From: an uncultured Candidatus Saccharibacteria bacterium
GTDB taxonomy: Bacteria > Patescibacteriota > Doudnabacteria > UBA920
DNA: 64,000 nt
Assembly (NCBI GenBank): GCA_964453265.1
Contig: CAYVNU010000003.1
Location: 3,957 to 67,956 of the forward strand
Reading direction: 5' to 3'
Made by a program: the position numbers and the translations under genes. Below are positions 10,770 through 50,802 of the stretch, piece by piece. Below the pieces are notes generated by a model. The model saw nothing but the letters and a program-made list of their open reading frames with translations. It searched no databases and had not been told where the DNA came from. Position 1 is the stretch's first letter; each line of letters begins with the position of its first letter.

Positions 10770-11093
10770 GACTAAATATTTTATTGGAATATTCCAGGCC
10801 ATACTTAACGCCTGCCCCACCGCAGCGGCTATCCGCAAACCCGTAAAACTACCCTGGCCTTTGTATACAATAATCTTTTTAAGCTCAATTTTTGGATCTT
10901 TAATCTTATTTGATTTCAAAAATATATCCAAGTCATTTAGAATTTCCGAACTTTCACGAGGCTTCACGGCAAAAGACTTCTGCTTGTCTTTTTTCCCCGA
11001 TTTAGATAGTTTAAATACTAACTTTCCATATTCAGCGGTATCGATCTGCAGGATATTTTTGTCAATTTTGTTCATTTTTGTCATTTTTGTCAT
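10749..11093 (-). CDS. tsaB: tRNA t6A biosynthesis protein TsaB-like (short, N-terminal domain only)
   Basis: KGQGSFTGLRIAAAVGQALSMAWNIPI matches the GPGSFTGxRIG core of TsaB/YeaZ; only 114 aa; N-terminus encoded by a 9-bp tandem repeat. Confidence 0.55.
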   Translation of the reverse strand: MTKMTKMNKIDKNILQIDTAEYGKLVFKLSKSGKKDKQKSFAVKPRESSEILNDLDIFLKSNKIKDPKIELKKIIVYKGQGSFTGLRIAAAVGQALSMAWNIPIKYLVKKTLRS

Positions 11094-11097
11094 TTTT
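11060..11097. repeat. 9-bp tandem repeat (tttgtcatt x about 4) forming the overlap between Mur ligase C-terminus and tsaB-like N-terminus
   Basis: ttgtcaattttgttcatttttgtcatttttgtcattttt; encodes KNDKNDKNEQN in one gene and MTKMTKMNKIDKN in the other frame. Confidence 0.8.
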
Positions 11098-12612
11098 ATT
11101 TAGTTCTTCTTTCGCTACGCTTACTTCGTCCCATTCTATGCGATGGTTCCCGGGCAAAACCAAAAATTGTTCGCTACCCTTGCCGGTAATTAAAACAATA
11201 TCATTTTCTTTAGCCAGTTTCAACGCTTCAGCTATGGCATAACGCCTGTCTAAATGCCGCTCTATCCTTTTCTCTTTTCTCTTTTCTCTTAGAACTGTAT
11301 TTATTCCCTCTTCAATATCTTCCGCTATTCTTTCCGGATCACTATCATACACATCGTCGTTGGTGATTATAATGGTGTCAGCAATTTGTGCGGAAATTTG
11401 TCCAAATAAAAATCTTTTTTGCACATCGCGGTGCCCGCCCGTTGAACCAAATACATGGATTAATTTGTTGTGAGGCAAGCTACTTGCAGCCATTAGCGCT
11501 GCTTTTATAGAAACCGGTTCGCAACCATAGTCTACAAAAATTTTAAAGCCTCTATTATTTTCCACTTCTTCCATTCTCCCGCGAATTTTTGTAAAGGTAG
11601 ATATTGCTTTAGCCGAGTCTTCTAATTTTATACCAAGCTGGTTGGCTGTGACCGTAGCAAGCAATGCATTGTACAAATTAAATTCGCCGGGCAGTTTAAC
11701 TTGAAAAGTTACATTGCCAATTTGAAATCCGTCATTCAATTTATTCGCCTTAATATAACTAACCCCCTCTAACTCCCGCTTTGACAAGGGGGAGGATTCA
11801 GAATTCCCCTCCTCTTTAAAGGAGGGGTTAGGGGAGGTTATATTTAATCTGGTTGATATTTTTTTCTCCGCATTAAACTGTAAAAACCACTCAGCATTTT
11901 CATCATCCCCATTCACAATAATAGTTTTGCTGACTTGCTTACCGGCTGACACGCTTACCAGCTTACTCGCTGACTCACTTACCGCTTCAAACAACTTTCC
12001 TTTCGCCTTTCTATAATTTTCAAACCCGCCGTGCGCTTCTATGTGAGCGTGAGACAAATTAGTTAAAACTGCTAAGTCAAACTTTATTCCCAAATGTCTG
12101 TTTTGCGCCAAGCCCTCCGACGTACATTCCACCACTGCGTATTTACAACCGTTATTTAAAATTTGTCTAAGCTGTTTTTGTAAAAGCCACCCGCCCGGCA
12201 TACTTAAACCGTGTTTGTTTATATATTCCGTTTTCCCGTCAAAAAAACTTACGGTGGTAATAAACCCCGCTCCACTTTTTATTGTACTTTTTACGTTTGT
12301 GTCTTTTGTGCTTAATTCCATAGCAACCTGATCACTACTTTTAACATCTGAAAAGTGGGGCGGGGTAAACCCACAACTCTGCTTTCCCTCCTCTCCCTTA
12401 AGGGGAGAGGCTGGGTGAGGGTGGTAATTTAAAATGCTCGATAACATCTGCACCGTAGTCGACTTCCCTGCCGTTCCAGTAACTCCTACTACAATCATTT
12501 TTGATGACGGATTACCAAAATACCAACTCGCCACAATAGCTAAAAACCCGTGGTAATACGGGCGTAAAAATTTAAGTACTGTATTGGGAATAATTTTTTT
12601 TATTAAATTCAT
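11062..12612 (-). CDS. murE: Mur ligase family protein, MurE-like (UDP-MurNAc-tripeptide synthetase) carrying in-frame palindromic-element insertions
   Basis: VGVTGTAGKSTT P-loop, LTNLSHAHIEAHGGFENYRKAKGKLF, C-terminal FGSTGGHRDVQKR and ITGKGSEQFL; two inserted segments (HPHPASPLKGEEGKQSC and PSFKEEGNSESSPLSKRELEG) encoded by palindromic repeats. Confidence 0.8.
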   Translation of the reverse strand: MNLIKKIIPNTVLKFLRPYYHGFLAIVASWYFGNPSSKMIVVGVTGTAGKSTTVQMLSSILNYHPHPASPLKGEEGKQSCGFTPPHFSDVKSSDQVAMELSTKDTNVKSTIKSGAGFITTVSFFDGKTEYINKHGLSMPGGWLLQKQLRQILNNGCKYAVVECTSEGLAQNRHLGIKFDLAVLTNLSHAHIEAHGGFENYRKAKGKLFEAVSESASKLVSVSAGKQVSKTIIVNGDDENAEWFLQFNAEKKISTRLNITSPNPSFKEEGNSESSPLSKRELEGVSYIKANKLNDGFQIGNVTFQVKLPGEFNLYNALLATVTANQLGIKLEDSAKAISTFTKIRGRMEEVENNRGFKIFVDYGCEPVSIKAALMAASSLPHNKLIHVFGSTGGHRDVQKRFLFGQISAQIADTIIITNDDVYDSDPERIAEDIEEGINTVLREKRKEKRIERHLDRRYAIAEALKLAKENDIVLITGKGSEQFLVLPGNHRIEWDEVSVAKEELNKNDKNDKNEQN

Positions 12613-13646
12613 CTTTTAAACACTCTATTAACCGCTCTTAACAAACCATAAAGCCAATATTCAAAAGGCTTAAAAATTATATCATAAGCGCCCGCATATT
12701 CCTTAATAGCATTTTCTAATGTTGAAAAGCCTAATTTAAACCGCACAAACCCTGGCGTGTCCCCGCCCGCAGTTTCTATACCCCAAAAATCGTATTCAGT
12801 AAGACCTGCTACTTTTGCATCTAACATAGCCTTAAAATGAAGTAAGTACGGCGCCATAAGATTTTTATTTTGGTCTGAGGATCCGCCAAATAAATAAGTA
12901 CGGGTTTTTCCGTAGTCTATTATTATTGCGCTGGCTAGCAGTTGCTTGTTGTAAAGCGCCTTATATACATGCAGTTTTAAATCGCCCTGCGGATTCTGAA
13001 TTGCAAAATAGCTAATTAATTTTTCAAAATAGTCTGGGCTTTGCGCTTTATAGCCCTGCCTCTGGGAAGTTTTAGCTATTAATTCTACAGCTTCTTTAGC
13101 TAAAAGTCCTTTGCCGTTTACTAAATGAAATTCGTCTTTAATTTCTACGCCATGTTTTTGCGCTAAGCGAATATTGTAACGCGTCTTATGATGCATGTCC
13201 GCCAAAAGCTCTTCCTCGCTTTTAGTTAAATCTATAACAAGTGTTTTCCCCGGTTGAATATTTTTGGTTTTGCTAACTTGCTTATTTGCTAACTTGCTTA
13301 TTTGTCCCTCTTCTTTAGGCTCTACTCTAATAAAAACCGCATCCACAAATTTCTTTTGCAATCCCTGCAGCAACTCGTCACATGTTACCCGTAACCCGTC
13401 ACCTATTATTGGTCCATAAGGCGCATATAGATAATATTTACCAAAAGGTAAAGACATTTTTATTAACTGCGCTACCCCTACGGTCTCCCCGCTTTCAACT
13501 TGCAACTTTAATCTTGTAACTTGCCGCCCAAGGCCGACCTGCCAGTCGCCCCATTCCCAACTTTGCAAAAAACTGCCCGCTTCTTGGGCAGCAACAAAAT
13601 TATTGTATTCGATTTTTTCATTCTCTAATAATTCCTTAAGCTGCAT
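12609..13646 (-). CDS. FemAB-family aminoacyltransferase (peptidoglycan interpeptide bridge formation)
   Basis: 345 aa, SWEWGDWQ N-terminal motif and overall FemX/FemAB-like layout; 4-nt overlap with upstream Mur ligase gene suggests operon. Confidence 0.6.
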   Translation of the reverse strand: MQLKELLENEKIEYNNFVAAQEAGSFLQSWEWGDWQVGLGRQVTRLKLQVESGETVGVAQLIKMSLPFGKYYLYAPYGPIIGDGLRVTCDELLQGLQKKFVDAVFIRVEPKEEGQISKLANKQVSKTKNIQPGKTLVIDLTKSEEELLADMHHKTRYNIRLAQKHGVEIKDEFHLVNGKGLLAKEAVELIAKTSQRQGYKAQSPDYFEKLISYFAIQNPQGDLKLHVYKALYNKQLLASAIIIDYGKTRTYLFGGSSDQNKNLMAPYLLHFKAMLDAKVAGLTEYDFWGIETAGGDTPGFVRFKLGFSTLENAIKEYAGAYDIIFKPFEYWLYGLLRAVNRVFKR

Positions 13647-13696
13647 ATTTTGAAATTTTGTGTCTATAAATCTTGGTCAATTCTGGTCAATTAAAA

Positions 13697-14251
13697 TTAC
13701 TTTCCAAGTAATTTTAACGCCTGCTTTATTTGCTCGCCCGTAGTTGCCACTGCATCTAACTTGTTAATTATGCTTCTCACTTCATTTTGCTTATACCCTA
13801 AAGCAATAAGTGCATCAAACACCTCACTGCTTCCACCTGTCACCCGTAACCCGTCACCCGTCACTTTTCCTTTTAGCTCCACTATTATTTTCTCCGCTGT
13901 CTTAGTCCCCACTCCCGAAATACGTGTAAAAATTCCGGCATCTTGGTTTGCAATCGCAGATTTTACCGCATCTACCCTTGCTGACGATAGTATAGCTAAA
14001 GCGACTTTCGGACCTACCCCCGAAACAGTAATAAGCATTTCAAAAAACTGCAAAGTGTTAAAGTCAGACAAACCAAAAAGACTCTGTCCGTCCTCGGAAA
14101 CTTTGTGATATATATAGAGCGAAAGACTATGGCCAATTCTGCTTTCTAAAACTTCCGGCGTTACAAAAACCTTATAACCTACGCCTTGATTTTCAAGGAT
14201 TATAAAGTTAGTAGCCTTCTCTAATATTTTTCCTTGCAAAAAAGCAATCAT
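13697..14251 (-). CDS. ruvA: Holliday junction branch migration protein RuvA
   Basis: 184 aa, MIAFLQGKI start, helix-hairpin-helix GVGPKVALAIL motifs; contains in-frame GDGLRVT repeat insert. Confidence 0.9.
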   Translation of the reverse strand: MIAFLQGKILEKATNFIILENQGVGYKVFVTPEVLESRIGHSLSLYIYHKVSEDGQSLFGLSDFNTLQFFEMLITVSGVGPKVALAILSSARVDAVKSAIANQDAGIFTRISGVGTKTAEKIIVELKGKVTGDGLRVTGGSSEVFDALIALGYKQNEVRSIINKLDAVATTGEQIKQALKLLGK

Positions 14252-14376
14252 AAGCTATGAAATTTTAATTAATACAAATCTATAAATGACTACAAAATAA
14301 TCCATTACAAATTCGTAGTTATTTGTAGCGCCCCCATTTAGTAGATTCGTAGTTATTCTACCACCTCCCAAAGCCG

Positions 14377-14405
14377 TTGACAAAAGGCTTAAATTAGCGT
14401 ATACT
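14377..14405 (+). promoter_or_regulatory. consensus sigma-70 promoter TTGACA-N17-TATACT driving the structured RNA locus
   Basis: ttgaca 14377-14382, exact 17-nt spacer, tatact 14400-14405; predicted TSS near 14413. Confidence 0.65.
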
Positions 14406-14413
14406 TTTGCCAA

Positions 14414-14931
14414 CCTGAGTTGGGGGGATTAGCACTGGTGGTCAGCCATGATCATCAGCTTACCCCTCAAGCTCAAGCCAGCTGGCCTTTAGAAGCAGGG
14501 TCAGTTGGCAACGGCAGTCCTACGAGCAATAAGCCTCAGACGTAGGACTGCCGGTAAAAGTTTTAAAAGCCGCAAGCACTGGCTTGCGGCAGGGCACGAC
14601 TAGAACGCAAAGTTCTAGCATCTGAATCGAATATTCAGAGATGAACACACCAAACCCACCATCGGGATTCCCGTCCCAAGTGTGTTCATCCGCCCTTTGA
14701 GGATTCGGCGCGCCTGACAGATCAGGAGCAGGTGTGCCGAGCTGCGGCCAGGTTCCCATTAATTTGGGGAGTTAAAACTCGAGCTCAGAGCTCACCAGCC
14801 GCAGCAAAAAATTAAGGAGGAAAAAATTTTTTGGCCCCTAAAAAGGGCCGATCGGGGGATGAGCATGCAATGGTGCATGCGCTTGCCCTGGGGGCAAGAG
14901 AAAGCGGGTTCAAATCCCCTATCCCCTACCA
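14414..14931 (+). ncRNA. GC-rich highly structured non-coding RNA of uncertain class (candidate tmRNA/ssrA; alternatively unknown sRNA co-transcribed with a tRNA-like gene)
   Basis: About 55-60% GC in a 35-40% GC genome; many perfect local hairpins (13-bp cggcagtcctacg/cgtaggactgccg, 11-bp gatgaacacac/gtgtgttcatc, 9-bp gccgcaagc/gcttgcggc); starts GGGGGAT right after the promoter and ends with T-arm GGTTCAAATCC, acceptor strand ATCCCCT, A73 and CCA; followed by intrinsic terminator; no conserved RNase P or SRP motifs seen. Confidence 0.45.
14854..14931 (+). tRNA. tRNA-like module (cloverleaf with UGG Pro-like anticodon but C at position 33 and one T-stem mismatch; encoded CCA)
   Basis: 7-bp acceptor stem gggggat/atcccct (G1-U72), D-stem gcat/atgc with GG in loop, anticodon stem cttgc/gcaag, loop cctgggg, canonical T-loop gTTCAAATc, discriminator A, CCA 14929-14931; non-canonical C33 keeps confidence low; may instead be the tRNA-like domain of a tmRNA. 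Confidence 0.4.
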
Positions 14932-14993
14932 GTTTTAGGAGTTCGCCTGAGCATTTTTTGCTCGCACTCCAAAAAATTTATCCTCCTCCTTGA

Positions 14994-15028
14994 GGGCGGC
15001 CAGCAACCAGCTGGTCGCCCTTTTTTTT
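14994..15028 (+). terminator. rho-independent terminator after the RNA locus
   Basis: gggcggccagc-aacc-agctggtcgccc stem followed by TTTTTTTT. Confidence 0.75.
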
Positions 15029-15100
15029 ATTCTCACCACTTTATGTGGCTTTTTTTAATTGTAGAAAAATGTTAAAATGAAAATTGGTCATTAATTAACC

Positions 15101-15250
15101 TATTTGTCGTATTAGTCTTATACGTCCTATAGGTCTTATGTGTCCCATAAGACCTATCCGTCCAATTTGTCCTATAAGTCTTAATAAGTCCTATTTGCCT
15201 TATAAGACTTATCAAGCTGTCCGTCCTATCAAGTCCCGTCCTATACAATT
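15101..15250. repeat. array of palindromic GTCCTAT(A/T)AG(A/G)TCTTAT-type repeats upstream of uvrB (candidate operator array)
   Basis: at least six gtcctat copies, embedded palindromes cctatagg, cttataag and aggtcttatg-N4-cataagacct; a related copy at 45345-45382. Confidence 0.6.
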
Positions 15251-15373
15251 TAAGCTTACTTCAAAATTCCAATCCTCCTTCGCCAAGGCTTCCAACTTCG
15301 CCAAGGCTACGTCGGACGAGTCGGCGGACCTATCGTAATAAATTACATCCGATAATAATCGGAGTTTAGTTTT

Positions 15374-17437
15374 ATGAATAAATTTGTACTAAAATCTAAA
15401 TTTAAGCCCGCCGGAGATCAGCCACGCGCGATTGAGGGTCTTTTAAAGTCGCTTAAAGCAAAAAACCGTTTTCAAACTCTACTTGGCGTTACAGGTAGCG
15501 GCAAGACTTTTACTATGGCCAACATAGTAGAAAAAATTCAAAAACCCACACTAATTATTTCCCACAACAAAACCTTAGCCGCGCAACTTGCCGCGGAATT
15601 TCAAGAATTTTTCCCAGACAACGCGGTTCACTATTTTGTCTCGTATTACGATTATTATCAGCCAGAAGCCTACATCCCCCGTTCAGATACCTACATAGAA
15701 AAAGATACCCAAATAAATGAAGAGATCGATCGTTTGAGAAACGCTGCCACCCAAAGTCTTTTGTCTAGAAAAGATGTTTTAATAGTAGCATCTGTTTCCT
15801 GCATTTACGGTCTTGGCGACCCGGCTAACTATTTAGATTTGGCAATGAGTTTTAAAGAAGGAAAGGATTATAAACGAGACAAGTTACTTAGAAGACTAAC
15901 AGATTTACAGTACCACCGTAACGACACAGAACTAGTGCGCGGCACTTACCGCGTGCAAGGTGATGTAGTAGAAATTATCCTTTCGAGCGAAGACACCATT
16001 ATTCTAATGGATTTTTTTGGCGACACGCTAGAAAAAATAGAAAGATTGGATGCCGTAAGTGGACACAAAATAGAAACCTTAGAAGAATTTACCATTTTTC
16101 CCGCTAAGCACTTTGTCACGCCCGAAGAAAAACTAAAAGCTGCTACAGAAAATATTCGTGCAGAAATGTTAGACCGAGTAAAATATTTTAAGTCCCAAAA
16201 CAAACTTATAGAGGCTCAAAGAATAGAACAACGTACAAACTTTGACTTAGAAATGTTAAGTAATACAGGCTTTGTTTCCGGTATAGAAAACTACTCTAGG
16301 CAAATAGAAGGGCGTGAAGCGGGCTCTGCTCCGTCTACTTTAATTGACTACTTTCCCGACGACTTTTTACTTTTTGTAGACGAGTCACATCAAACTATTC
16401 CGCAAATTGGCGCTATGTACGAGGGCGACAAGTCGCGCAAAACCAACTTGGTTGACTACGGTTTCAGACTCCCCTCTGCGCTCGACAACCGTCCGCTTAA
16501 GTTTGATGAATTTGAAAAGAAAATTAATCAAGTCGTTTTTGTTTCAGCAACGCCGGCGCCTTTTGAAATTTTAGCCTCTGTAAACCAAAAAATTCCTAAA
16601 AAGGTTGAGGGTGAAAAATTAATGGTTACCGATGTTAAGCAGACAGACACTATAGTCGAGCAGTTAATAAGACCGACCGGCCTACTCGACCCCACCATAG
16701 AAATAAAGCCCATAAAAAACCAGGTTGATGATTTAATAGAACGCATACATGAACGTATAAAAAAACATCAACGCGTGTTGGTTGCCACACTAACTAAACG
16801 CATGGCCGAGGAACTAACCGAGTACTTAAAAGAAGACGGAGTAAAAGTGCAGTACCTGCACAGCGATGTAGATACTTTTGAACGTTTAGAGATTTTGCGC
16901 GATTTAAGACTTGGCGTTTTCGATGTTTTAGTCGGCATTAACTTACTCAGAGAAGGTTTAGATTTACCCGAAGTTTCTTTAGTTGCAATTCTAGATGCGG
17001 ACAAAGAAGGATTCCTTCGCTCTGAAACTTTCTTTATGCAAATGATGGGCAGAGCAGCGCGTCACCTTGAAGGTCATGTTGTAATGTACGCAGATAGAAT
17101 TACAGGAAGTATGCAAAGAGGGATTGATGAAACCACCCGCAGAAGAAAAATCCAAGAAGCCTACAATAAAAAACACGGTATAACCCCCAAAGGCATACAA
17201 AAAGCTATTGCCGATTCGCGCATGGCAGGCCAAAGGTCCCCCGAAGCTTTAGCGGAGGGGGAAAGCAAACTATATCGTGACCCAAGCCGTATGGACAAAG
17301 AAGAACTAAAATTCTACCTCCACGAACTAGAAGAACAGATGGATTTAGCAGCAAAAAATTTGGAGTTTGAGACAGCCGCAAAGATTCGCGATAGAATTGA
17401 AGAAATAAAAACCTTAAAACGTTTGAGTAAAAAATAA
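15374..17437 (+). CDS. uvrB: excinuclease ABC subunit B
   Basis: 687 aa, GVTGSGKTFTMANI Walker A, UvrB helicase motifs and C-terminal UVR domain (EFETAAKIRDRIEEIK). Confidence 0.97.
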   Translation: MNKFVLKSKFKPAGDQPRAIEGLLKSLKAKNRFQTLLGVTGSGKTFTMANIVEKIQKPTLIISHNKTLAAQLAAEFQEFFPDNAVHYFVSYYDYYQPEAYIPRSDTYIEKDTQINEEIDRLRNAATQSLLSRKDVLIVASVSCIYGLGDPANYLDLAMSFKEGKDYKRDKLLRRLTDLQYHRNDTELVRGTYRVQGDVVEIILSSEDTIILMDFFGDTLEKIERLDAVSGHKIETLEEFTIFPAKHFVTPEEKLKAATENIRAEMLDRVKYFKSQNKLIEAQRIEQRTNFDLEMLSNTGFVSGIENYSRQIEGREAGSAPSTLIDYFPDDFLLFVDESHQTIPQIGAMYEGDKSRKTNLVDYGFRLPSALDNRPLKFDEFEKKINQVVFVSATPAPFEILASVNQKIPKKVEGEKLMVTDVKQTDTIVEQLIRPTGLLDPTIEIKPIKNQVDDLIERIHERIKKHQRVLVATLTKRMAEELTEYLKEDGVKVQYLHSDVDTFERLEILRDLRLGVFDVLVGINLLREGLDLPEVSLVAILDADKEGFLRSETFFMQMMGRAARHLEGHVVMYADRITGSMQRGIDETTRRRKIQEAYNKKHGITPKGIQKAIADSRMAGQRSPEALAEGESKLYRDPSRMDKEELKFYLHELEEQMDLAAKNLEFETAAKIRDRIEEIKTLKRLSKK

Positions 17438-18375: not shown

Positions 18376-18503
18376 CCAGTTTAATTAGCTATTTCCATTA
18401 TATTCCCCTTTCTCATTTTTGTCAACTTTTCTGACAAATAAATAATACTTAATGAATATACCTATAAACAAAGCTATTTAGTATATTTAATTAGTCATAC
18501 TTA

Positions 18504-18532
18504 TTGACTATATGCTAAATTTATGACATAAT
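18504..18532 (+). promoter_or_regulatory. sigma-70-like promoter TTGACT-N17-CATAAT upstream of GC-rich gene
   Basis: ttgact 18504-18509, 17-nt spacer, cataat 18527-18532. Confidence 0.45.
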
Positions 18533-18644
18533 TGCAAGTTATAAAAAATAACAGTCCAGGGAGCCTGCGGGACTAAAAACTTGGGGTGATACTCTGGCGA
18601 GAGTTTCTAAATACGCGTGACAATCCTGAAGGAGGATTTAAAAA

Positions 18645-19358
18645 ATGCCTGCATATACGATCGCTGACTTCGCCCGGAAACACAAAGGCCTGCGTGTGAT
18701 CGCCCGCCGCCATGCGGTGTACAACAAACCCGTGCTTGGACTGGACGCCCTTACAATGGCTGCGCTCATCTACTCGCGCACCATTGACCCGCAACTTCTT
18801 GGCCTAAGTGCCGAGGGCATGGAACAGATGTACAACCAGGGCGAGCTGCTTGCGGAAATGGGACTTGTTCCTGACCGCATAGTCACAGGCATTGACCTGC
18901 GCAACTGGGAAGGCGGGATGCAAACCGTCGCTGCCATCAAGGCCAAAACCGGCAATGTAGTTCCCTGCCACCGCAGCCCGGCCGTAACCTATCCGTACTA
19001 CGATGCCATGAAGACCGTAGAGGTGTATGAAAAGTACGGTGACCAGGCCGTACACGCTTACCTGTCCGAACAGCCCGGAACGGAAGGACTGTGGACTGAG
19101 TCGGCCGCGGACTTTATGAACCGGATCGAAATGTCAGTTGCGTCAGTAGCGTGGCCGGGAATCACGCTATTTGATCTCAACTTCGAGCAAATGACATTCC
19201 TGCATTTCCACCTTGTCGAGCACCTGCGGCAAGTTGAGATTCCATTTGGCCCCGACGCCTGGTGTCCTAAAAACGGCGGAGGGATCGTCATCGCCAACGA
19301 CGACGCTGTGGGCGAGTTCCACCCGGATCTCACCATGGTTATCAAGATCGTAAGCTAG
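18645..19358 (+). CDS. hypothetical protein encoded on a GC-rich (about 58%) island; likely horizontally acquired
   Basis: 237 aa ORF with strong SD ggagga 8 nt upstream; codon usage/GC sharply different from flanks; many spurious overlapping ORFs in other frames typical of GC-rich DNA; followed by 9-bp-stem hairpin gggagagac/gtctctccc. Confidence 0.6.
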   Translation: MPAYTIADFARKHKGLRVIARRHAVYNKPVLGLDALTMAALIYSRTIDPQLLGLSAEGMEQMYNQGELLAEMGLVPDRIVTGIDLRNWEGGMQTVAAIKAKTGNVVPCHRSPAVTYPYYDAMKTVEVYEKYGDQAVHAYLSEQPGTEGLWTESAADFMNRIEMSVASVAWPGITLFDLNFEQMTFLHFHLVEHLRQVEIPFGPDAWCPKNGGGIVIANDDAVGEFHPDLTMVIKIVS

Positions 19359-19462
19359 CTGGCATCCGACGGCTACAAGGGAGAGACAAACCACGCACAG
19401 TGGCGTCCGTCTCTCCCTACCCTTTATTAGTCCTTAATAAATTAAGCATTAATAATAGGTAT

Positions 19463-19829: not shown

Positions 19830-20954
19830 ATGATTCAATCTGCCAATTCAAAAGAAATTCCAGAGAATAAAAACTGGATTAGAGATTTTGCCCAAGCGTC
19901 TTTTAAACTATATTCGGGTAATACTATAGATGCATTCCAGCCTCTAGACTTTTTTCATTTTTACCCGCTCTGGTACGATTTATGGGTAAACAGATTTATG
20001 TCTGTAATGGATGTTTTACAATGCGATTATAAAAGCTATCAAGAATTAAAACACTTATTACCCGTACCTTCCAGTATGAGAGCAATTTTACAAAAGCTCA
20101 TCCCAACTTTTGCAGGCGTAGACCCCATGCATGCAAAAAACTTTGGTAGGATGGCAAATTTTTTCACGCGCATGCTTAAAGAAAGCTGTGCGGAAGACCC
20201 TTTTGGTTTTAGCCACAACCCTCTTCATACCAGAAATGAACTAAACGAAATAATTCAAAACACCCCCTGGCAACCAGCAACTCCCGAAATTGCCAAACAA
20301 CTAGGACAACTAATTACCGCAGCCGGCTCCTTAGTGCACGGCTTATATAATGACGTAGTTACAGATTTCGGTTGGGATGCCTATGGACCTTACAACATAG
20401 TTTTGCCTGAAAAAAAATATCAAATAATTATTCGTCACTTTCCAGATCTTGCGCCAAAAGAAATATGGGAAAGTAAATTTTTAACACCGGTTCAAGATAT
20501 AAAAATCTATCAATTTTACGAAAACGTAGAATGGGAATTAGCTTTTTTAGGCTGCCATACAGTGCTTAAATCGGGTAGCCCAGTACTTGGATTAAAATAC
20601 TTTGCCATATCTATAAACGAAAAATTTATTACCCCAAATATTATACAGCCCATAATACAAGAATTTAGCGAAAAAGCTGTTAGCATATATAAAGAAATTA
20701 GAAAAAAAGATTTTGAAGAATTAAAACAATTGGTAATGATTCAAGAATGCTACCAACTACACAAAATATTTTCTGCCGCCTACATGAACTGGCAGCCTAC
20801 GGAAGAAATGTTGGAAAAAATAAAAAACCAACCTCTTACTTCTAACTTATTACCTTTTGGCAGATTAATGACCAGCCTTGATGAATACAAAGAACTTTTT
20901 CATATAAATAAATTCGAAAAAGAAGTTTTAGACTTTCCCACTGTTAAGGCATAA
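19830..20954 (+). CDS. hypothetical protein (374 aa), possibly partner of the mobile-domain protein
   Basis: long ORF with lineage-typical codon usage, no recognisable motif. Confidence 0.5.
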   Translation: MIQSANSKEIPENKNWIRDFAQASFKLYSGNTIDAFQPLDFFHFYPLWYDLWVNRFMSVMDVLQCDYKSYQELKHLLPVPSSMRAILQKLIPTFAGVDPMHAKNFGRMANFFTRMLKESCAEDPFGFSHNPLHTRNELNEIIQNTPWQPATPEIAKQLGQLITAAGSLVHGLYNDVVTDFGWDAYGPYNIVLPEKKYQIIIRHFPDLAPKEIWESKFLTPVQDIKIYQFYENVEWELAFLGCHTVLKSGSPVLGLKYFAISINEKFITPNIIQPIIQEFSEKAVSIYKEIRKKDFEELKQLVMIQECYQLHKIFSAAYMNWQPTEEMLEKIKNQPLTSNLLPFGRLMTSLDEYKELFHINKFEKEVLDFPTVKA

Positions 20955-20965
20955 AGCCTTAATCC

Positions 20966-21017
20966 CGTATGTCACCCGCACAAGGATTCCCCTTGTTGTT
21001 TACAAGGGGAATCCTTG
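20966..21017 (+). terminator. terminator-like perfect 17-bp hairpin
   Basis: cacaaggattccccttg-ttgttta-caaggggaatccttgtg followed by ttta; second 7-bp hairpin tgtcaag/cttgaca just downstream. Confidence 0.55.
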
Positions 21018-21184
21018 TGTTTACCTCATGTCAAGACATAGAGCCTTGACAGAAAGGGTAAAAAATAATAAAATATTTTGAAAATCCCGGGCTTTTTTCT
21101 GGGATTTTTAATTTTAAAAATAGCAGGGGGACTGTATTCATGTCTGCTAAATAGCTAAAAATAGCTTTTGGTTATTTTGCGGAC

Positions 21185-21865
21185 ATGAAAAATCATATTA
21201 TTCTTTTGGCCACGCTATGCGTGGCCACCCTGTGTCCAAGGGGGGCGCTTGGACAATGGGAGGCCGAGGCGCGGCTGGCGCCTCACACTCCCAAAGAATT
21301 TTCGGAAGGACATGGCGAGTCCTTCCGGAACGTGGGGGAGGCATGGTTCCGTCTCCCCTCCCTGCGGGGTTTCCGCGGGGAAACAGGAGCCTTCCGGACC
21401 GGCGACTCGTTTGTCGCCGTGTTCGGAGTTGAAAAGGAGTTGGCACACGACCAACTCCTGCCAGGCATTTTTGCCTGGGTTGATTCCGGCGGCATCCGGC
21501 CTGCCGCTGGGATCTCGTGGGCTCGGCATAGCCGAGTAGCTTTAGAGGGGCACGCCATTATGGCGTCCCCGAAAAAACTGCTCGGCCGCAGTGACGCAAG
21601 CCTAAGCCTCACAAGAGGCTTTGCGCTTGGTGTTACTGCCGAGCTAGACCCTGCCCCACACGGCAGGGCGTGGGGTTTGGGGCCTCACGTTAAAAAACAA
21701 ATCAAAGGAGCCGAGCTGGTGCTCGGCCACCTTTGGAAAATTGAAGGGGAAGGAGCCGAACGCCACGGCGAACCTTCCACTCACCCCATGAACCGCGAAT
21801 GGTTCGTGGGTATTAAATTCGCTCTCGGCCACCCCAAGGCCGAGGGCAAAAAATCTCACCACTAG
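21185..21865 (+). CDS. secreted hypothetical protein on second GC-rich (about 62%) island; possible outer-membrane beta-barrel/lipid A deacylase-like
   Basis: N-terminal signal peptide MKNHIILLATLCVATLCPRGALGQ, glycine/aromatic-rich, C-terminal EWFVGIKFALGHP; all six frames open across 21198-21862 as expected for GC-rich coding DNA. Confidence 0.5.
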   Translation: MKNHIILLATLCVATLCPRGALGQWEAEARLAPHTPKEFSEGHGESFRNVGEAWFRLPSLRGFRGETGAFRTGDSFVAVFGVEKELAHDQLLPGIFAWVDSGGIRPAAGISWARHSRVALEGHAIMASPKKLLGRSDASLSLTRGFALGVTAELDPAPHGRAWGLGPHVKKQIKGAELVLGHLWKIEGEGAERHGEPSTHPMNREWFVGIKFALGHPKAEGKKSHH

Positions 21866-21876
21866 CTGATGAGTAG

Positions 21877-21912
21877 GGGCCAGGACATAGCGTTCCTGTC
21901 CCCTTGTTTTTT
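21877..21912 (+). terminator. rho-independent terminator
   Basis: cagga-catagcg-ttcctg hairpin then ccccttgTTTTTTTTc. Confidence 0.6.
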
Positions 21913-22028
21913 TTCTGCAATTTTGGTAAAATACGAAAAGTCTGAGTAATTAAATTTTTCATCCGTGTCGGATAAATTTTATTATCAGATAAGCATAATA
22001 CATTATTCTTAATACATAATACTTTTCT

Positions 22029-22298
22029 ATGCCAAATACTAAATCCGCAATGAAAGCCATGCGCCAGTCTATTACCAGACGCGCACGAAACATTGCCCAA
22101 AAAGATACTTTTAAAACCGCAGTTAAAGAAGTAAAAAAACTTATTACTGCCGGCAAAAAATCTGAAGCCATGGAAGCCATGAAAAAGGCTATGTCCACTT
22201 TAGACAAAGCCGTTAAAAAAGGAGTAATTAAGAAAAATACTTCTTCTCGAAAAAAATCCAGAATGGCAAAAGCTATAGCAAAATTAAAAACCGCTTAA
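22029..22298 (+). CDS. rpsT: 30S ribosomal protein S20
   Basis: MPNTKSAMKAMRQSITRRARN N-terminus and lysine/alanine-rich 89 aa typical of bS20; terminator hairpin aaaaccgc-ttaa-ggcggttttt overlaps stop. Confidence 0.9.
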   Translation: MPNTKSAMKAMRQSITRRARNIAQKDTFKTAVKEVKKLITAGKKSEAMEAMKKAMSTLDKAVKKGVIKKNTSSRKKSRMAKAIAKLKTA

Positions 22299-22306
22299 GG
22301 CGGTTT

Positions 22307-22719
22307 TTAATTTGTATAAAGTATTATGTATTGGGTATTGGGTATAAGGCTTCTACAGCTCTTAATTAAACCATGTATTAACTTATCGCACTTTAATGAT
22401 TGGTTTTCGATCTCCCTATACTTTTCTTCTTCTAAATAACCAATTCCTTTACTTAAATCTGCCTGGCTCCTAACTTCTGTTAGAGAGCCCAAAGCTGTAT
22501 AATAAAATTGAATCTTTTCCTTAAATGAATTTCTGCTAAAGCCTTCGCAATATTTGAAGCAATGGAAATTACAGCCCGTCTTATTTGCGATGTAATGCCA
22601 AACAATTCTTCTTTTGGAAAATTTTTAGTAATCTTATAGACTAAAATAGCTAGATTATAAGCTTCCTGCCAAGCGTATAAATCACGAAATGATTGTATTT
22701 TGTTTTGCGCCTTATACAT
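22307..22719 (-). pseudogene. four-helix-bundle protein gene (23S rRNA intervening-sequence protein family) disrupted by a -1 frameshift
   Basis: N-terminal part QSFRDLYAWQEAYNLAILVYKITKNFPKEELFGITSQIRRAVISIASNIA then frame change; +2 frame continues EGFSRNSFKEKIQFYYTALGSLTEVRSQADLSKGIGYLEEEKY, i.e. the family consensus NIAEGFxRxSxKEFxxFLxIAxGSLxE; a single missing G at about 22541-22547 restores the frame. Confidence 0.7.
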
Positions 22720-22739
22720 TATACCTAATACCTAATACC
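22328..22739. mobile_element. inverted-repeat-flanked cassette carrying the four-helix-bundle pseudogene (IVS-like hairpin element)
   Basis: about 20-bp terminal inverted repeats made of GGTATT(A/G) heptamers: gtattgggtattgggtata (22328-22346) and tatacctaatacctaatacc (22720-22739); repeats abut the start codon and overlap the C-terminal codons. Confidence 0.55.
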
Positions 22740-22743
22740 TATT

Positions 22744-23763
22744 TTATTTTTTATTTATCAAATTGACTACTAGCTTTACCATTACTTCCTTCTGGCCTCT
22801 GTCGCTCTCCGCAACTAAGAGCGCCAGAGCAGCTAAAGCGGTGTCGTTAATTTTTCGCTCACCCTTTTTATTAAGCAGATAATTATTTTCAACTAAGAAA
22901 AGTAAAAACAACAAAGACCCAATGCGTTTATTGCCATCAACAAACGGATGGTCCTTAATACAAAAATAAAGCAAATGAGCAGCTTTTTCTTCTATGGAAG
23001 GATACAAAACTTTTTTATCAAAAGTCTGTTCAATGTTGCCTAAAACAGCTTTAAATTTTTCCCCCACCTCTTGCCCAAACAAACCACCCGCTTCTTTTTT
23101 AACTCCCAACCTTTGTTTAAATTGTAAAATAGATTTTTTTACCTCTTCATACTTTAGACTTTTAGACTCTTTCTTGCTTACGTCCTCTATTTTTAGCTCG
23201 CCTTTGTCATACAAATTCAAAACCGCCCAAGTGTTGGCATAGTCAGAAATAATACTTAACAGTTCTTTTTCGTAACCTGTGGCTTTTTGCGCCTGTATTA
23301 AATTCTGAAATAATTTAACAGTTTGCTGAAGTTCTTTTAAATGTAAATCATGTTCCTTCTTTAATTCCGTAAGCCTTTTTTCATTAACCGCATAGCCTTT
23401 AAGCAAATAATCTTTTAGCCTCTGAGTCGCCCAAATACGGAATTGAGTGCCGCGTTTAGACCTAACTCTATACCCCACAGATATAATTACATCTAGGTTG
23501 TAAAAATTTACAGACCTCTCTACTTGCTTTGAACCCTCGGTTTGAACTACCCGGAATTTCCGGGTAGTTTGATTTTGGCTTAATTCAGCCTCTTTATAAA
23601 GACTCTGGATATGTTCCGATATGGTATCCCTATCTTTATCAAACAGGTCAGCCATTTGAGCCTGATTAAGCCAAACAGTTTCGTCTTCTAATTTTACTTG
23701 AATCTCTGTGCCCGTCTGATCCTTGTATATAATAATTTCACCTTTTTTTATTTCTTCGGTCAT
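22744..23763 (-). CDS. RhuM-family N-terminal domain fused to Fic/DOC domain protein
   Basis: N-terminal WLNQAQMADLFDKDRDTISEHI...RKFRVVQTEGSKQVERSVNFYNLDVIISVGYRVRSKRGTQFRIWAT matches RhuM virulence-protein family; C-terminal HPFVDGNKRIGS is the Fic HPFx[DE]GNGR motif with K for G. Confidence 0.7.
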   Translation of the reverse strand: MTEEIKKGEIIIYKDQTGTEIQVKLEDETVWLNQAQMADLFDKDRDTISEHIQSLYKEAELSQNQTTRKFRVVQTEGSKQVERSVNFYNLDVIISVGYRVRSKRGTQFRIWATQRLKDYLLKGYAVNEKRLTELKKEHDLHLKELQQTVKLFQNLIQAQKATGYEKELLSIISDYANTWAVLNLYDKGELKIEDVSKKESKSLKYEEVKKSILQFKQRLGVKKEAGGLFGQEVGEKFKAVLGNIEQTFDKKVLYPSIEEKAAHLLYFCIKDHPFVDGNKRIGSLLFLLFLVENNYLLNKKGERKINDTALAALALLVAESDRGQKEVMVKLVVNLINKK

Positions 23764-24079: not shown

Positions 24080-27028
24080 TTAGCGAAGGAGAGTCATTTC
24101 TTCCATCTCTCCCCAATTATCCCCCACCTTGCCTTCCACTTTTATAGGAACCGAAAGTGATATAGCTTGTTCCATCATTGGAATTAACTTCTTCGCCCAC
24201 TCCTCCACTTTGTCTTCCTTTACCTCAAAAACCAATTCGTCATGCACCTGAAGTAGCATGCGAATTTCCGAGCTTATTGGCTTATTAGCTGAACCGATTA
24301 TTAGCTTGTGAATATTAATCATCGCCACTTTAATTACATCGGCCGCCAAACTCTGAATAGGAAAATTCACTGCCGCTCTTTCCGCTGCCGCGCGTATAAA
24401 AAATTGCCCTGACTTTATTTCCGGAAACTTTCGCATTCGGCCTAGCTCATTACGTACAAAACCTTCTTGGTTAACTTGGAGCTTTACCTGCTCTATATAC
24501 TGCTCAACCTGGGGGTAAGCTTCAAAATATTTTCTTATGTATTGTTTCGCGTCGCCCATTGTCATTTCGCCAACTCGTGCCGATAAACCAAAACTAGATA
24601 CTCCATACAAAATTCCAAAGTTAATAGTTTTGGCATCACGCCGCATATCTTTTGTAAGTTGTTCTGATGATACGCCAAAAATTTCCATAGCCGTCTTACT
24701 ATGAATATCTTCACCATTCTTAAACACTTCCATCATCTTTTTGTCTTTAGCCAAATGCGCCACAATGCGAAGCTCTATTTGGGAATAGTCTAAAGACAAA
24801 AGTTTATAACCTTTTTCCGCCACAAAGGCTTTTCTTACCTGACTGCCCAAGCCTTCACCCCGCACAGGGATGTTCTGCAAATTAGGGTCAATGCTGGAAA
24901 GCCGCCCCGTTGCCGCAATAGTTTGGTTATAACTCGTATGTAGCCTGCCGGTTTTTTTATTTACCATTTCCGGTAAAGTTGTAAGATAGGTACTATACAA
25001 CTTTGTAACCTCTCTATACTCTAAAATTTTTGGAATTATGTCGTGCTGTCCAAGCATCTTCTCCAAGTTATCAGCAGAAGTTGAAACGCCCGTCTTAGTG
25101 CGCTTGTTATTCGTCGCCTCAAGCTTCATTTCGTCAAACAAAACTTCTTTAAGCTGCTTAGGCGAAGCTATATTAAATTCGTGTCCGGCTAATTTATGAA
25201 TTTTCTTTTCTAAATCTTTAATATCTATTTCCGCCTCCCCGGCAAGACGGTTTAAAAGCCTAACGTCTAACTTAATGCCGTTTAATTCCACGTCTGCTAA
25301 AACTTCCATTAAGGGCATTTCTATTTCTGTAAATACTTTAGTAAGATTATTCTTTTTAAGTTCCGGTTCAAACAACTCTTTTAAACGCAAAGTCATATCT
25401 ACGTCTTCACAGCAATACCAACTGACTTTCTCCTTTGGTACTTGATCCATTGTGATTTGGTTCTTACCGACCCCAATTAGATCGGTTATGGGCTGCATTT
25501 GGTAGCCCAGTTCGTTAAAAGCCAAAGCATCTAAACCGTGCTGTCGAGTACCGGCGTTAAGCAAGTACGATGCGATCATGGTATCAAAACTAGCAGTAAG
25601 TTGTAAGTTGTAAGTTGTAAGTACTTGCTTGTCGTACTTTATGTTGTGACCAATTAACTTAACCTTACCCGATGTAAGCAGGGTTTTTAGTTCAGTCGAT
25701 GATGTAAAAAGTTTCGCCGGAACATAAAAAGCCTTACCTGGCTTATCGCATAACCCAACTCCCACTAATTCCGCGGTAATTGGGTCAAGGCCTGTGGTTT
25801 CTGTGTCTACACTAATTTCTAAAGCAGATGACAATCCCTTCATCATCTTCTGTAATTTTTCTTCTGTATCAACAAACTCATAATCCTGCTTTCCAATACT
25901 ACCACCTCCCCCGCCTGCGGCGGGTACTCCTCCTGTTCCAGGAGGAGAGCTTCCACCGTCGCTAAAACTACGGCGGTCAGTCTGCAGCTCGCCCGACGAA
26001 GCCTTGGCGAAGTCGGGAGCCTCCCCTCCTAATATAGGAGGGGTGTCGCCGTTAGGCGACGGGGTGGTATTTTTCGGCAACTTATTCAACAAATTCCTAA
26101 ACTCCAAACTCTGAAATAACTTCACAGTCTGTGACAAATGTTCTTGGTCTAATTCGTAAGCTTTTATTTCCGGGTCTATGCCCGGCACGTTGCACACTAT
26201 AGTAGAAAGTTCGTAAGACATTTTAGCCTGATCTTCCTGCTCAAGCAATAAATTAAGTATTCTGGATTTGAAATTGGAAATTTTAAAATTATTTGGAAAT
26301 TGGAAATTGGAAATTGGAAATTTGGCGCCTTGGGTTTTAGCTTCAAGATGCAATTTATCGTACAATTTTTCCAATGATCCAAAATATTTAATTAACTCGC
26401 TGGCGCCTTTCTCTCCTATGCCTTTAACTCCCGGAATGTTGTCACTCGGGTCACCTCTTAAAGCTTTGTAGTCCACCATTTGGTCAGGGTTCAGCCCAAA
26501 CCTAGCTCTTACCGCTTTACTGTCGTATATAACTGTATCTGCAAGTCCTTTGCGCGGCGTGTAAATTTTTACTTTGCCGTTTACTAACTGCAAAGTATCC
26601 ATATCGCCGGTTAAAATAAATATTTCAGAATTCTCGTGACTTTTTTCATGAAAGTGTTTAGACAGCGTGCCTAAAACGTCATCCGCCTCAAAACCTTCCT
26701 TTTCGTAAATTGGCACATTCATTGCGCGCAACACATTTTTAATAACCGGTATTTGGTCGTACAAAGCCTGGTCAGCTTTTACTCTGGTTGCTTTATATTC
26801 TTTATATTTTTCATGCCTAAAAGTCGGCCCGGCTAAGTCAAAAGTCGCAGCTACATGAGTAGCCTTAATTTCCTTCATGGCCTTTAAAAATATAGTTAAA
26901 AACCCAAATACGGCGCCCGTCGGCCTACCGTCTTTGGTAGTTAAAGTAGGCAAAGCATGGTACGCCCTATGTACCAAAGCATTACCGTCTATAAGTAAAT
27001 AACGTTCTTTTTGTACTTTTTCCGGCAT
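24080..27028 (-). CDS. polA: DNA polymerase I (5'-3' exonuclease, 3'-5' exonuclease and polymerase domains) with low-complexity inserts
   Basis: 982 aa; 5' nuclease N-terminus, polymerase motifs LSLDYSQIELRIVAHL (motif A) and QVHDELVFE (motif C); GC-rich insert 25899-26072 and 7-bp microsatellites inside the linker. Confidence 0.93.
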   Translation of the reverse strand: MPEKVQKERYLLIDGNALVHRAYHALPTLTTKDGRPTGAVFGFLTIFLKAMKEIKATHVAATFDLAGPTFRHEKYKEYKATRVKADQALYDQIPVIKNVLRAMNVPIYEKEGFEADDVLGTLSKHFHEKSHENSEIFILTGDMDTLQLVNGKVKIYTPRKGLADTVIYDSKAVRARFGLNPDQMVDYKALRGDPSDNIPGVKGIGEKGASELIKYFGSLEKLYDKLHLEAKTQGAKFPISNFQFPNNFKISNFKSRILNLLLEQEDQAKMSYELSTIVCNVPGIDPEIKAYELDQEHLSQTVKLFQSLEFRNLLNKLPKNTTPSPNGDTPPILGGEAPDFAKASSGELQTDRRSFSDGGSSPPGTGGVPAAGGGGGSIGKQDYEFVDTEEKLQKMMKGLSSALEISVDTETTGLDPITAELVGVGLCDKPGKAFYVPAKLFTSSTELKTLLTSGKVKLIGHNIKYDKQVLTTYNLQLTASFDTMIASYLLNAGTRQHGLDALAFNELGYQMQPITDLIGVGKNQITMDQVPKEKVSWYCCEDVDMTLRLKELFEPELKKNNLTKVFTEIEMPLMEVLADVELNGIKLDVRLLNRLAGEAEIDIKDLEKKIHKLAGHEFNIASPKQLKEVLFDEMKLEATNNKRTKTGVSTSADNLEKMLGQHDIIPKILEYREVTKLYSTYLTTLPEMVNKKTGRLHTSYNQTIAATGRLSSIDPNLQNIPVRGEGLGSQVRKAFVAEKGYKLLSLDYSQIELRIVAHLAKDKKMMEVFKNGEDIHSKTAMEIFGVSSEQLTKDMRRDAKTINFGILYGVSSFGLSARVGEMTMGDAKQYIRKYFEAYPQVEQYIEQVKLQVNQEGFVRNELGRMRKFPEIKSGQFFIRAAAERAAVNFPIQSLAADVIKVAMINIHKLIIGSANKPISSEIRMLLQVHDELVFEVKEDKVEEWAKKLIPMMEQAISLSVPIKVEGKVGDNWGEMEEMTLLR

Positions 27029-47538: not shown

Positions 47539-47664
47539 ATGAGCGATCCGAACTTACGAACACATCCCCGCCTGCACTTGCCTGCGGCTTCGAGCCCTGG
47601 CGGGCAGGCGAATGTTCCGAATTTGAACCATTCGGATAAAATGAGAATTGTTCGTGCTGATATA

Positions 47665-48765: not shown

Positions 48766-48934
48766 ATATAATTTAATTAATATAAAGAAGTAATAATATT
48801 AATAAGGGTTGTTGATTTGTGGATTAAGGAAAATACTTAGTAAATAACAGTAATTGTTTATTTTTTTGTTGTGCACAAGTTGGTTGGTAATAAGTTAATA
48901 AAAATAATTTCTTCAATTATTTTTATTAACTTAT

Positions 48935-50293: not shown

Positions 50294-50667
50294 TTGTTTT
50301 GATTGTCTTAGTTATTATTCCTAGAGAAATTTATGGTTGTGTCTATGTTGAAGATTGGAAAAGGTTGTAATCTGCCTTTTTTGTCTACGTAAGTACTATT
50401 TTAACAGGCAGTTATCAACATGTAAAACCTATAAAAAACGGCTTATATAAAGGGTAAATAAATTCATCTGTTAATATGGTGTGGATATTTTGTGTTAAAA
50501 ATTTAGGCTTCTGATAGGGTTGACTTTTGCACGACTTTTTTAGTATAATATTCTAAGAATTAACAATCCAAAAAGACTCTCAATTAAATTACTGTTCATA
50601 AAATACTGTTTGTAAATGTGGCAGCTGTTTTAATTAAGTGTAGTCTTTAGGGCTATTTAGGGAAAAC
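50294..50667. other. putative oriC: dnaA-rpmH divergent AT-rich intergenic region with DnaA-box-like sequences
   Basis: TGTGGATAT (50483-50491, reverse complement of TTATCCACA with one mismatch), TTATCAACA (about 50413), additional boxes TGTGGATTA (about 48819) and TTATCCAGA (about 48951) in the dnaA-dnaN spacer; AT-rich unwinding-element-like stretches. Confidence 0.6.
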
Positions 50668-50802
50668 ATGAAAAGAACTTATCAACCAAAAGTTGCAAGA
50701 AGAAAAAAAAGACATGGTTTTTTAAAACGCATGTCCAGTAAAACCGGCCGTAACGTTTTGGCCAGGCGCAGGGCTAAGGGTAGGAAAAAGTTGTCGGTTT
50801 AG
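50668..50802 (+). CDS. rpmH: 50S ribosomal protein L34
   Basis: [44 protein letters not shown], 44 aa, below ORF-track size cut-off; canonical position before rnpA. Confidence 0.9.

Follow-up and report, generated by a model that had tools for sequence, protein, structure and literature searches.

Two neighbouring genes on a chromosomal stretch of Candidatus Doudnabacteria, ruvA and a gene of the FemAB family, carry almost the same 20-mer and encode the same peptide, GDGLRVT, and at both sites the motif is made of tandem 7-nt units. The stretch analysed is 64,000 nt long (the window; coordinates count from its first letter) and has the content of an ordinary chromosome: rpoB/C, murE, uvrB, polA, ruvB and dnaA-dnaN-recF. 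Its homologues place the organism in Candidatus Doudnabacteria, within the Patescibacteria. Related loci used for comparison are labelled L001, L160, L234 and so on. Based on alignments with these loci and with protein homologues, we consider it likely that both copies belong to a local family of in-frame heptanucleotide micro-arrays in flexible loops, made by slippage or template switching, that the FemAB copy was copied from RuvA, and that the peptide is a mere spacer. A preliminary description of this DNA had instead viewed the motif as a small in-frame insert propagated between two unrelated genes. The features at issue are the following.

12609..13646, minus strand: FemAB-family peptidoglycan bridge-forming transferase gene, 345 aa (Pfam FemAB; PDB matches to FemX and lipid II:glycine glycyltransferase)
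13370..13403, minus strand: FemAB slot-1 heptamer array (period-7 scan; AlphaFold model for the loop)
13384..13403, plus strand: 20-mer copy 1, GTTACCCGTAACCCGTCACC (pattern search), within the FemAB-family gene
13697..14251, minus strand: ruvA, 184 aa (Pfam RuvA_N, HHH_5 and RuvA_C; PDB RuvA homologues, E = 1e-26)
13830..13864, minus strand: ruvA array (Tandem Repeats Finder (TRF) and a separate period-7 scan)
13839..13858, plus strand: 20-mer copy 2, GTCACCCGTAACCCGTCACC (pattern search), inside the RuvA array

The two copies are identical at 19 of 20 bases and have in common an exact core of 17 nt (13387-13403 matching 13842-13858). With up to 2 mismatches allowed, the pattern GTYACCCGTAACCCGTCACC has two matches in the whole window, at 13384-13403 and 13839-13858, and none in 100 shuffles (chance expectation 0), which bears out the shared 20-mer of the preliminary description. 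Its position for the first copy stands, whereas the second, given there as 13838-13863, is placed by the pattern match at 13839-13858, and its idea of a small repeat dispersed within the window fails, as the 64 kb hold no third copy at this threshold. When flanking bases are included, the FemAB array of the window agrees with the window RuvA array at 23 of 27 positions, and the FemAB array of L160 does so at 24 of 27. Both host genes lie on the minus strand, so the coding-strand form of the motif is GGTGACGGGTTACGGGTRAC; the genes do share one strand as had been said, but the motif as first written is that of the template strand, not the coding strand. Both copies encode GDGLRVT, and the fuller translations, IGDGLRVTCDEL and GKVTGDGLRVTGGSSE, agree with those reported earlier.

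The preliminary description was silent on the internal structure of the motif, a tandem array of 7-nt units. On the coding strand, the ruvA array reads GTGACGG GTGACGG GTTACGG GTGACAG GTGGAAG and the FemAB slot-1 array reads G GTGACGG GTTACGG GTAACAT GTGACGA GTTGC. The unit consists of the palindromic core GTNAC and two further bases, giving GTNACGG on the coding (minus) strand. TRF reports period 7 with 4.4 copies at 13834-13864, and the separate scan concurs. The RuvA array thus comprises 4.4-5 units and FemAB slot 1 comprises three good and two degenerate units, and the at least three head-to-tail 7-nt copies that mark a heptanucleotide simple-sequence repeat are present. The shared identity therefore comes from repeated DNA and not from protein homology, as had been surmised.

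This structure also accounts for the peptide. As 7 leaves a remainder of 1 on division by 3, a full period takes three units (21 nt, 7 codons), and every frame yields one residue cycle, V-T-G-D-G-(stop)-R. The common frame of the two sites, which had been offered as evidence, is uninformative because it follows automatically when the two arrays have the same unit on the same strand. A pure (GTGACGG)n array carries TGA once per 21 nt, and this stop must be avoided, so that one unit in three has T or C at the N position; here that unit is GTTAC, in which TTA encodes Leu. With TTA fixed by the avoidance of TGA, GDGLRVT results at both sites and most of the shared 17-mer is forced. The RuvA array encodes VTGDGLRVTGG (residues 130-140) and FemAB slot 1 encodes GDGLRVTCDEL (residues 82-92).

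In neither protein is the segment an extra loop. Across about 120 homologues each of RuvA and FemAB, the segment between conserved flanks (ELKxK...SSEVFDAL in RuvA; PYGP...LxQELxKKF in FemAB) is constant in length and hypervariable in sequence, and a PDB comparison shows the query segments to be shorter, not longer, than those in solved RuvA and FemX structures. These lengths speak against the term "insert" used at first. In RuvA, Pfam HHH_5 stops at residue 127 and RuvA_C begins at residue 142, with the array residues 130-140 between them; by these boundaries, the array encodes the flexible linker that joins the helix-hairpin-helix domain (domain II) to domain III. The AlphaFold model of the FemAB protein has a mean predicted local distance difference test (pLDDT) score of 90.3 and a predicted template modelling score (pTM) of 0.90. 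Residues 81-88, which include GDGLRVT (82-88), are modelled as coil preceding a helix at 89-99, and the block 81-90 has a pLDDT of 69 versus the mean of 90.3. A second variable site, residues 111-123, is also coil (pLDDT 72). In this model, the slot-1 array encodes a surface loop of low confidence.

Arrays of this kind are in excess in the window and its relatives. Defining an array by period 7, three or more copies and a self-identity of 80% or higher, we found 7 arrays in the window versus 0.57 expected from a third-order Markov model (maximum 2 in 30 simulations). In 29 Doudnabacteria-like loci, there are 26.8 period-7 arrays per 100 kb versus 8.4-9.6 among 130 further loci; no enrichment was seen in the same comparison for period 6 or period 8. 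An excess over composition that stands out among unit lengths, the hallmark of a simple repeat, is therefore found for period 7 in the window and related loci. The arrays here are mostly 4-4.5 units long and are present in intergenic DNA and in PolA too. At the protein level, 7-residue periodicity appears in 50 of 120 FemAB homologues, nearly all of it at query positions 80-99 and 110-129, with 5 sequences also periodic near the C-terminus (330-349). At lags 4, 5, 6, 9 and 10 at most 5 homologues are periodic; at lag 8 there are 15, because of octamer arrays. The same statistic was dropped for PolA homologues, where most matches came from a conserved motif, DYVAATFDLAAPTF, and not from arrays.

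The RuvA array is, by the aligned orthologues, old in the lineage and evolves in concert, with the same base changes in every unit. It begins at the same codon in nine lineages (the window, L160, L001, L232, L230, L231, L084, L085 and L086), which marks the segment as native and in register, not as an insert. The unit is GTGACGG, in three copies, in the window, L160 and L001; GTGACAA, in three to four copies, in L232, with the related GTNACAA/GTNACAG in L230 and L231; GTCACAA/GCGACAG in L084; and CGGACAG, in three copies, in L085. A G at the N position of the third unit is never seen among the nine lineages. The window and L232 differ in this array by 1 synonymous and 5 non-synonymous codon changes because the same GG to AA change occurs in each unit.

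The FemAB loops present a different pattern and are, judging from the orthologue alignments, slots that are filled by arrays of different heptamers in different relatives. Slot 1 holds GATTTAA (4.5 copies) in L001, L010, L086 and L088, AATTTTC (4 copies) in L008 and L012, AGTGGGC (4 copies) in L007, AAATTYA in L005 and GAATTAT in L081. Slot 2 holds CTACCAA, CTACTCA, AACTTAC, ACTTGTC, GTTACCC or GTCACTC in relatives; its unit is an octamer in the window and its orthologues have heptamer arrays. A further slot, slot 0, has GATATTG (4 copies) in orthologues and is degenerate in the window. The remaining arrays of this gene, together with an array related to slot 2 in the adjacent MurE-like gene, are as follows.

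13492..13524, minus strand: FemAB slot-0 degenerate heptamer array, GTTACAA GATTAAA GTTGCAA GTTGAAA
13269..13304, minus strand: FemAB slot-2 array, 8-nt unit ATAAGCAA GTTAGCAA x2, encoding SKLANKQVSK
11929..11987, minus strand: octamer array of the MurE-like gene, about 7 units of GTAAGCNN / GTCAGCNN, encoding SESASKLVSVSAGKQVSK

The octamer family (GTAAGCNN / GTCAGCNN / ATAAGCAA / GTTAGCAA) is common to the MurE-like gene (11929-11987) and FemAB slot 2 (13269-13304), where it gives peptides ending in GKQVSKT and NKQVSKT, respectively. It is a second instance of adjacent genes with a common array unit and is probably what the preliminary description listed as the first shared insert.

In L160, L234 and L009, slot 2 carries the slot-1 unit in reverse complement, and such inverted array pairs recall quasipalindrome template switching. 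The two slots are predicted to pair in the mRNA of L160 (z = -2.7) and also in that of L234; the window, L001 and L008 lack this pairing, which for that reason was dropped as a conserved feature.

What links the two genes within a genome is the identity of the unit. The window FemAB array aligns with units 2-5 of the RuvA array, including the irregular ACAG unit, for which there is no coding reason, ACA and ACG being synonymous. In L160, all three arrays are of G type: the RuvA linker and slot 1 have GTGACGG, and the inverted slot 2 has GTCACTC (reverse complement GAGTGAC). In L234, all three are of A type: RuvA has GTGACAA/GTTACAG, slot 1 has GTTACAG in 4 copies, and slot 2 has TTGTCAC in 4.7 copies (reverse complement GTGACAA). 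The unit variant thus co-varies between RuvA and FemAB within genomes, the window and L160 having GG-type units and L234 units of the AA/AG type. More broadly, 15.4% of array pairs within 2.5 kb of each other have the same unit (at most 1 mismatch) versus 6.6% of pairs between loci, a difference reached in 6 of 2000 permutations. Of 31 same-contig pairs of RuvA linker and FemAB slot-1 peptides, 3 have at least 4 residues in common (permutation p = 0.044).

Copying between the sites is favoured because the FemAB string equals RuvA units 2-5 with the irregular ACAG, because units co-vary within genomes, and because same-unit arrays cluster locally. In the mechanism we propose, replication slippage or template switching would create and homogenise the arrays, and a short-tract event, either ectopic conversion or template switching, would have copied the RuvA array into FemAB slot 1 of the window and L160; the two arrays are 455 bp apart and share a strand. 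The direction was probably from RuvA to FemAB, since the RuvA array is older and in register. Selection may be limited to purging stop codons and frame-breaking lengths, leaving the peptide as a spacer. Of the two routes of propagation first put forward, insertion or gene conversion, it is the latter, or copying in a wider sense, that has the better support as the origin, and insertion does not.

Several observations weigh against this account. The RuvA linker peptide is under some protein-level constraint and is not purely neutral DNA: between the window and L233, VTGDGLRVT is kept through 5 synonymous and 0 non-synonymous changes. Taken together with the block-wise change of units, this points to a DNA-level homogenising process atop an ordinary, mild peptide constraint. 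Slippage is expected to be rare in arrays of 3-5 imperfect units, and no length differences, and hence no copy-number polymorphism, were seen among the arrays of the window, L160 and L001. Pure drift in situ is insufficient for the FemAB slots, as unit similarity shows no positive correlation with protein divergence (rho = 0.06 for slot 1 and -0.20 for slot 2). The PolA array FPISNFQFPNNFKISNF, present in some close relatives and absent from others, is genuinely inserted when set against the closest orthologue, and arrays can therefore also arise by insertion. The co-variation test (p = 0.044) is marginal and rests on three genomes. The FemAB gene is, moreover, a recombination mosaic. Its match to L160 reaches 93-95% only over 13350-13436, and to L001 it is 87-100% identical (mostly 91-100%) over about 12900-13200; elsewhere the identity is 40-75%. 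Slot 1 of the window and L160 differ by 0 synonymous and 3 non-synonymous changes in 18 codons, and this near-identity reflects a recombination tract; the mosaicism blurs the time and place of the array copy. Finally, L001 has the RuvA array yet has GATTTAA in FemAB, several distant lineages have GTNAC-type units in FemAB slot 1, and the same unit, strand and stop avoidance force most of the 17-nt identity, which leaves room for convergence.

Independent convergence, in which both loops separately gained the same common heptamer and no DNA passed between the sites, is an unlikely but credible explanation. Once the unit is given, the peptide cycle is the same in every frame, and T or C is required in the middle unit. 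Unrelated viral contigs repeatedly give rise to (GTNACCC)n: pure arrays were found in 68 of them, with a guanine-cytosine (GC) content of 0.32-0.71, and a scan of viral contigs for the motif brought up nothing but generic arrays of this pure kind, in unrelated contigs, with no element among them. GTNAC-type units give slot-1 peptides such as DGLQVTGYK, SDKLQVTSCK and EDGLRVTGDG in distant lineages, and the L001 combination just mentioned also speaks for this reading. Weighing against convergence are the irregular fourth unit (ACAG) common to both arrays, the co-variation of three arrays, of G type in L160 and A type in L234, and the local clustering of same-unit arrays.

A bolder view is that the arrays, far from being passive products of slippage, constitute a lineage-specific system for rewriting defined loops of housekeeping proteins, in which cassettes are overwritten, loci are homogenised with one another (also in inverted orientation), a dedicated templated mechanism is at work, and the arrays act as preferred landing pads for 21-nt hairpin mini-elements; we regard this as improbable.

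It is quite improbable that the arrays are a functional nucleic-acid signal, whether a G-quadruplex (G4), a GTNAC binding or restriction-type site repeated at 7-bp spacing, a structure in the mRNA, or phase variation in which gaining or losing one unit shifts the frame. G-rich GGGNATC heptamers do form G-quadruplexes and favour four units (PMC4692102), and the arrays here are close to that length. However, neither a search for G4 motifs nor folding of both arrays, whether G4-aware or as local RNA, gave a positive result: ruvA has only three GGG runs and FemAB two, with no canonical motif in either, and the sole canonical G4 motif in the window lies at 62914-62934. GTNAC is neither enriched nor depleted (132 observed versus 143 +/- 11 expected), and a restriction or methylation-type site was rejected on this ground. 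The predicted fold of slot 1 with the inverted slot 2 in L160 would suit an mRNA signal, but significant local structure is found at neither array and the pairing is missing from the window, L001 and L008. Orthologue units are wholly different, so no single sequence-specific factor fits. As for phase variation, length variants are lacking among close relatives (the window, L160 and L001), and the hosts are housekeeping genes, not surface genes.

A tiny mobile element placed in frame in both genes, similar to the Rickettsia palindromic elements or the small dispersed repeats of cyanobacteria, is very improbable. Other GC-rich hairpins do insert in frame in this lineage (21-nt inserts in the arrays of L160, L084 and L003, and a hairpin in MurE), and the heptamer array in PolA is an insertion, as noted above. 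For the two sites discussed here, the idea is largely refuted by length, fold, copy number and register: neither site is longer than in about 120 orthologues, a hairpin or significant fold is lacking (minimum free energy z = +0.59 and +0.66 versus shuffles), only 2 copies occur in 64 kb (at most 2 mismatches), and the motif is internally tandem and in register with orthologous arrays. Neither a transposase nor a reverse transcriptase was found among the 36 open reading frames (ORFs) scanned. A diversity-generating retroelement target was rejected on the same scan for a reverse transcriptase, and because the changes are unit-wide G to A and not adenine-specific. Searches for an RNA gene that might explain the region found none with ARAGORN or Rfam (gathering thresholds over the whole window; E-value mode over 14200-15400 and 20900-22100). 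That GDGLRVT was natively selected in both proteins has a practically negligible probability: the RuvA peptide VTGDGLRVT is held through synonymous changes in L233 (five) and in L001, but a conserved motif is contradicted by alignments in which both positions, a flexible linker and a low-confidence loop, are hypervariable, and elsewhere the whole peptide shifts at once by unit-wide base changes, e.g., to TSDKLHVTSS.

Heptamer arrays were also noted at other places. The polA gene (24080-27028) holds two, at 26291-26334 and 25592-25629, with the units AATTTCC and AACTTAC; both units recur in FemAB slots of other genomes, and the first of the two arrays is the insertion relative to the closest orthologue. 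The rpsT gene lies between inverted heptamer arrays at 21991-22025 and 22318-22352 (CATAATA / GTATTGG). Beside it is a truncated 23S-rRNA-IVS-protein ORF (22480-22719) with a weak bAvd-like match, which ends in an array of CCTAATA (22710-22760) and is followed by a RhuM/Fic-domain gene. In L006, the region equivalent to the ruvA-uvrB gap contains seven different heptamer arrays within 800 bp. In the window, this gap (14252-15373) is 1.1 kb of non-coding DNA, GC-rich at about 14300-14900 (GC 0.49-0.52), with a 9-nt repeat array at 15106-15194; no tRNA, tmRNA or above-threshold Rfam family was found in it.

GC-rich hairpin mini-inserts of about 21 nt, e.g., CCTGCCTCGCCGGCAGACGG and CCTGTCTGCCGACAAGGCAGG, lie in frame (7 codons) exactly inside heptamer arrays. 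They were located at about 6140-6165 in L160, at 3421-3435 in L084, and in FemAB slot 1 of L003 and L011; the L160 insert is missing from the otherwise co-linear array of L001. TCPAGRR, LSADKAG and AAAKAMAGR are likely peptide traces of such inserts in other FemAB homologues. The mini-inserts recall the small dispersed repeats that Elhai reportedly described in cyanobacteria in 2008. A GC-rich hairpin in MurE (12387-12422) consists of CCTCTCCC-TTAA-GGGAGAGG followed by a GGGTGAGGGT-like tail, is in frame and encodes HPHPASPLKGEEG; a second copy is at 62900-62935, 50 kb away, 11790-11850 is also listed, and a related element is present in FemAB slot 2 of L161. At its N-terminal end, MurE contains an insertion of some 47 residues that the L081 and L086 orthologues lack. 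The GC-rich insert at 25988-26022 in polA is an 89% inverted copy of 15286-15320, upstream of uvrB (FAKASSGE and NFAKATSDES).

Other features of the window stand apart from the arrays. GC-rich islands at 21185-21865 and 18500-19400 have a GC content of 0.57-0.62 versus a window mean of 0.38, with no Rfam match in either; the former includes a 226-aa ORF with a signal-peptide-like start, no Pfam match and a counterpart gene in L160. A 9-nt tandem repeat, ATTTTTGTC (4.7 copies, 11055-11097), covers the overlap between the end of MurE (C-terminus NDKNDKNEQN) and the beginning of a short TsaD/TsaB-like ORF (MTKMTKMNK). The recF-dnaN-dnaA genes occupy 46459-50293 on the minus strand and are followed by a 0.5-kb gap (about 50300-50800) that is the likely replication origin; ruvA and the FemAB gene are co-oriented with a fork heading leftwards from it.

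The odd shared insert is thus explained as simple-sequence DNA, and a rule of thumb follows: identical peptides in unrelated proteins may be a DNA-level artefact of a heptamer array. A non-triplet repeat can persist in essential-type genes of a reduced candidate phyla radiation (CPR) genome, in the same loops of orthologues, despite turnover of the unit. This calls for caution in alignment, phylogeny and the inference of domain boundaries in CPR proteins. The ruvA and FemAB loci also offer a natural system for the study of slippage, template switching and short-tract conversion in unculturable organisms.

Heptanucleotide repeats as such are already known, and it is the in-frame, slot-wise form, with unit turnover and co-variation between arrays, that appears undescribed in the literature searched. 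They are the most abundant long simple repeats in many bacteria according to a survey as later papers summarise it, with polymerase slippage proposed as their source (Mrazek, 2007, via PMC4679880 and PMC4692102). The long simple sequence repeats (LSSRs) of that work, as far as they are quoted there, are similar to the present arrays in their head-to-tail 7-nt units, the excess of period 7, the many units per genome and the proposed slippage (Mrazek et al., 2007, via PMC4679880 and PMC4692102). In these summaries the surveys stress intergenic arrays, with coding regions favouring units that are multiples of three, whereas the arrays described here are short (3-5 units), in frame in housekeeping genes, located in the same loop of orthologues and found in a CPR lineage.

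The TAACTGA direct repeats of Beggiatoaceae, Cyanobacteria and Bacteroidetes form arrays of 2-6 copies, which reversed in ORFs read LSVISYQ (MacGregor, 2015, PMC4679880). They lie mainly just upstream of start codons, where they are proposed to be binding sites for a regulator, and within ORFs they occur at protein termini; it was also argued that arrays survive only where proteins tolerate them (PMC4679880). The RuvA linkers of other Doudnabacteria, which read LSVTSYQ, LSVISTQ and LSVVSGQ, come close to LSVISYQ, but the arrays here have another unit and sit in internal loops. The GGGNATC quadruplex repeats of Xanthomonas and Nostoc (Rehm et al., 2015, PMC4692102) are similar in that each unit holds one GGG and arrays of about four units are preferred; the arrays here differ in being coding and in lacking the canonical G4 motif of four consecutive G3 tracts with short loops.

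The short tandemly repeated repetitive (STRR) sequences of heterocystous cyanobacteria, as quoted in a later paper, likewise comprise several tandem heptanucleotide families dispersed in one genome (Mazel et al., 1990, cited in PMC4692102). They are not matched in the strict sense, since the host here is Candidatus Doudnabacteria, of a different phylum, and the unit is GTNACGG. The units that Mazel and co-workers described in 1990 are said to be CCCCAGT, TTGGTCA and CAACAGT, in arrays that are mostly intergenic and often longer. The Rickettsia palindromic elements described by Ogata and colleagues in 2000 are reportedly 100-150 bp palindromic insertions that add length, in frame, at surface positions of conserved proteins. 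The arrays described here are similar to them as repeat DNA tolerated in frame, but are tandem, 21-35 nt long, and bring neither a gain in length nor a hairpin. In Borg elements, the repeat units within ORFs are multiples of three, whereas the unit here is 7 nt, so that three units make up each period of the peptide. The Borg repeats are likewise fast-evolving repeats within ORFs that give rise to low-complexity peptides and disordered protein regions, although they are far more extensive and belong to extrachromosomal elements of archaea (PMC9879509).

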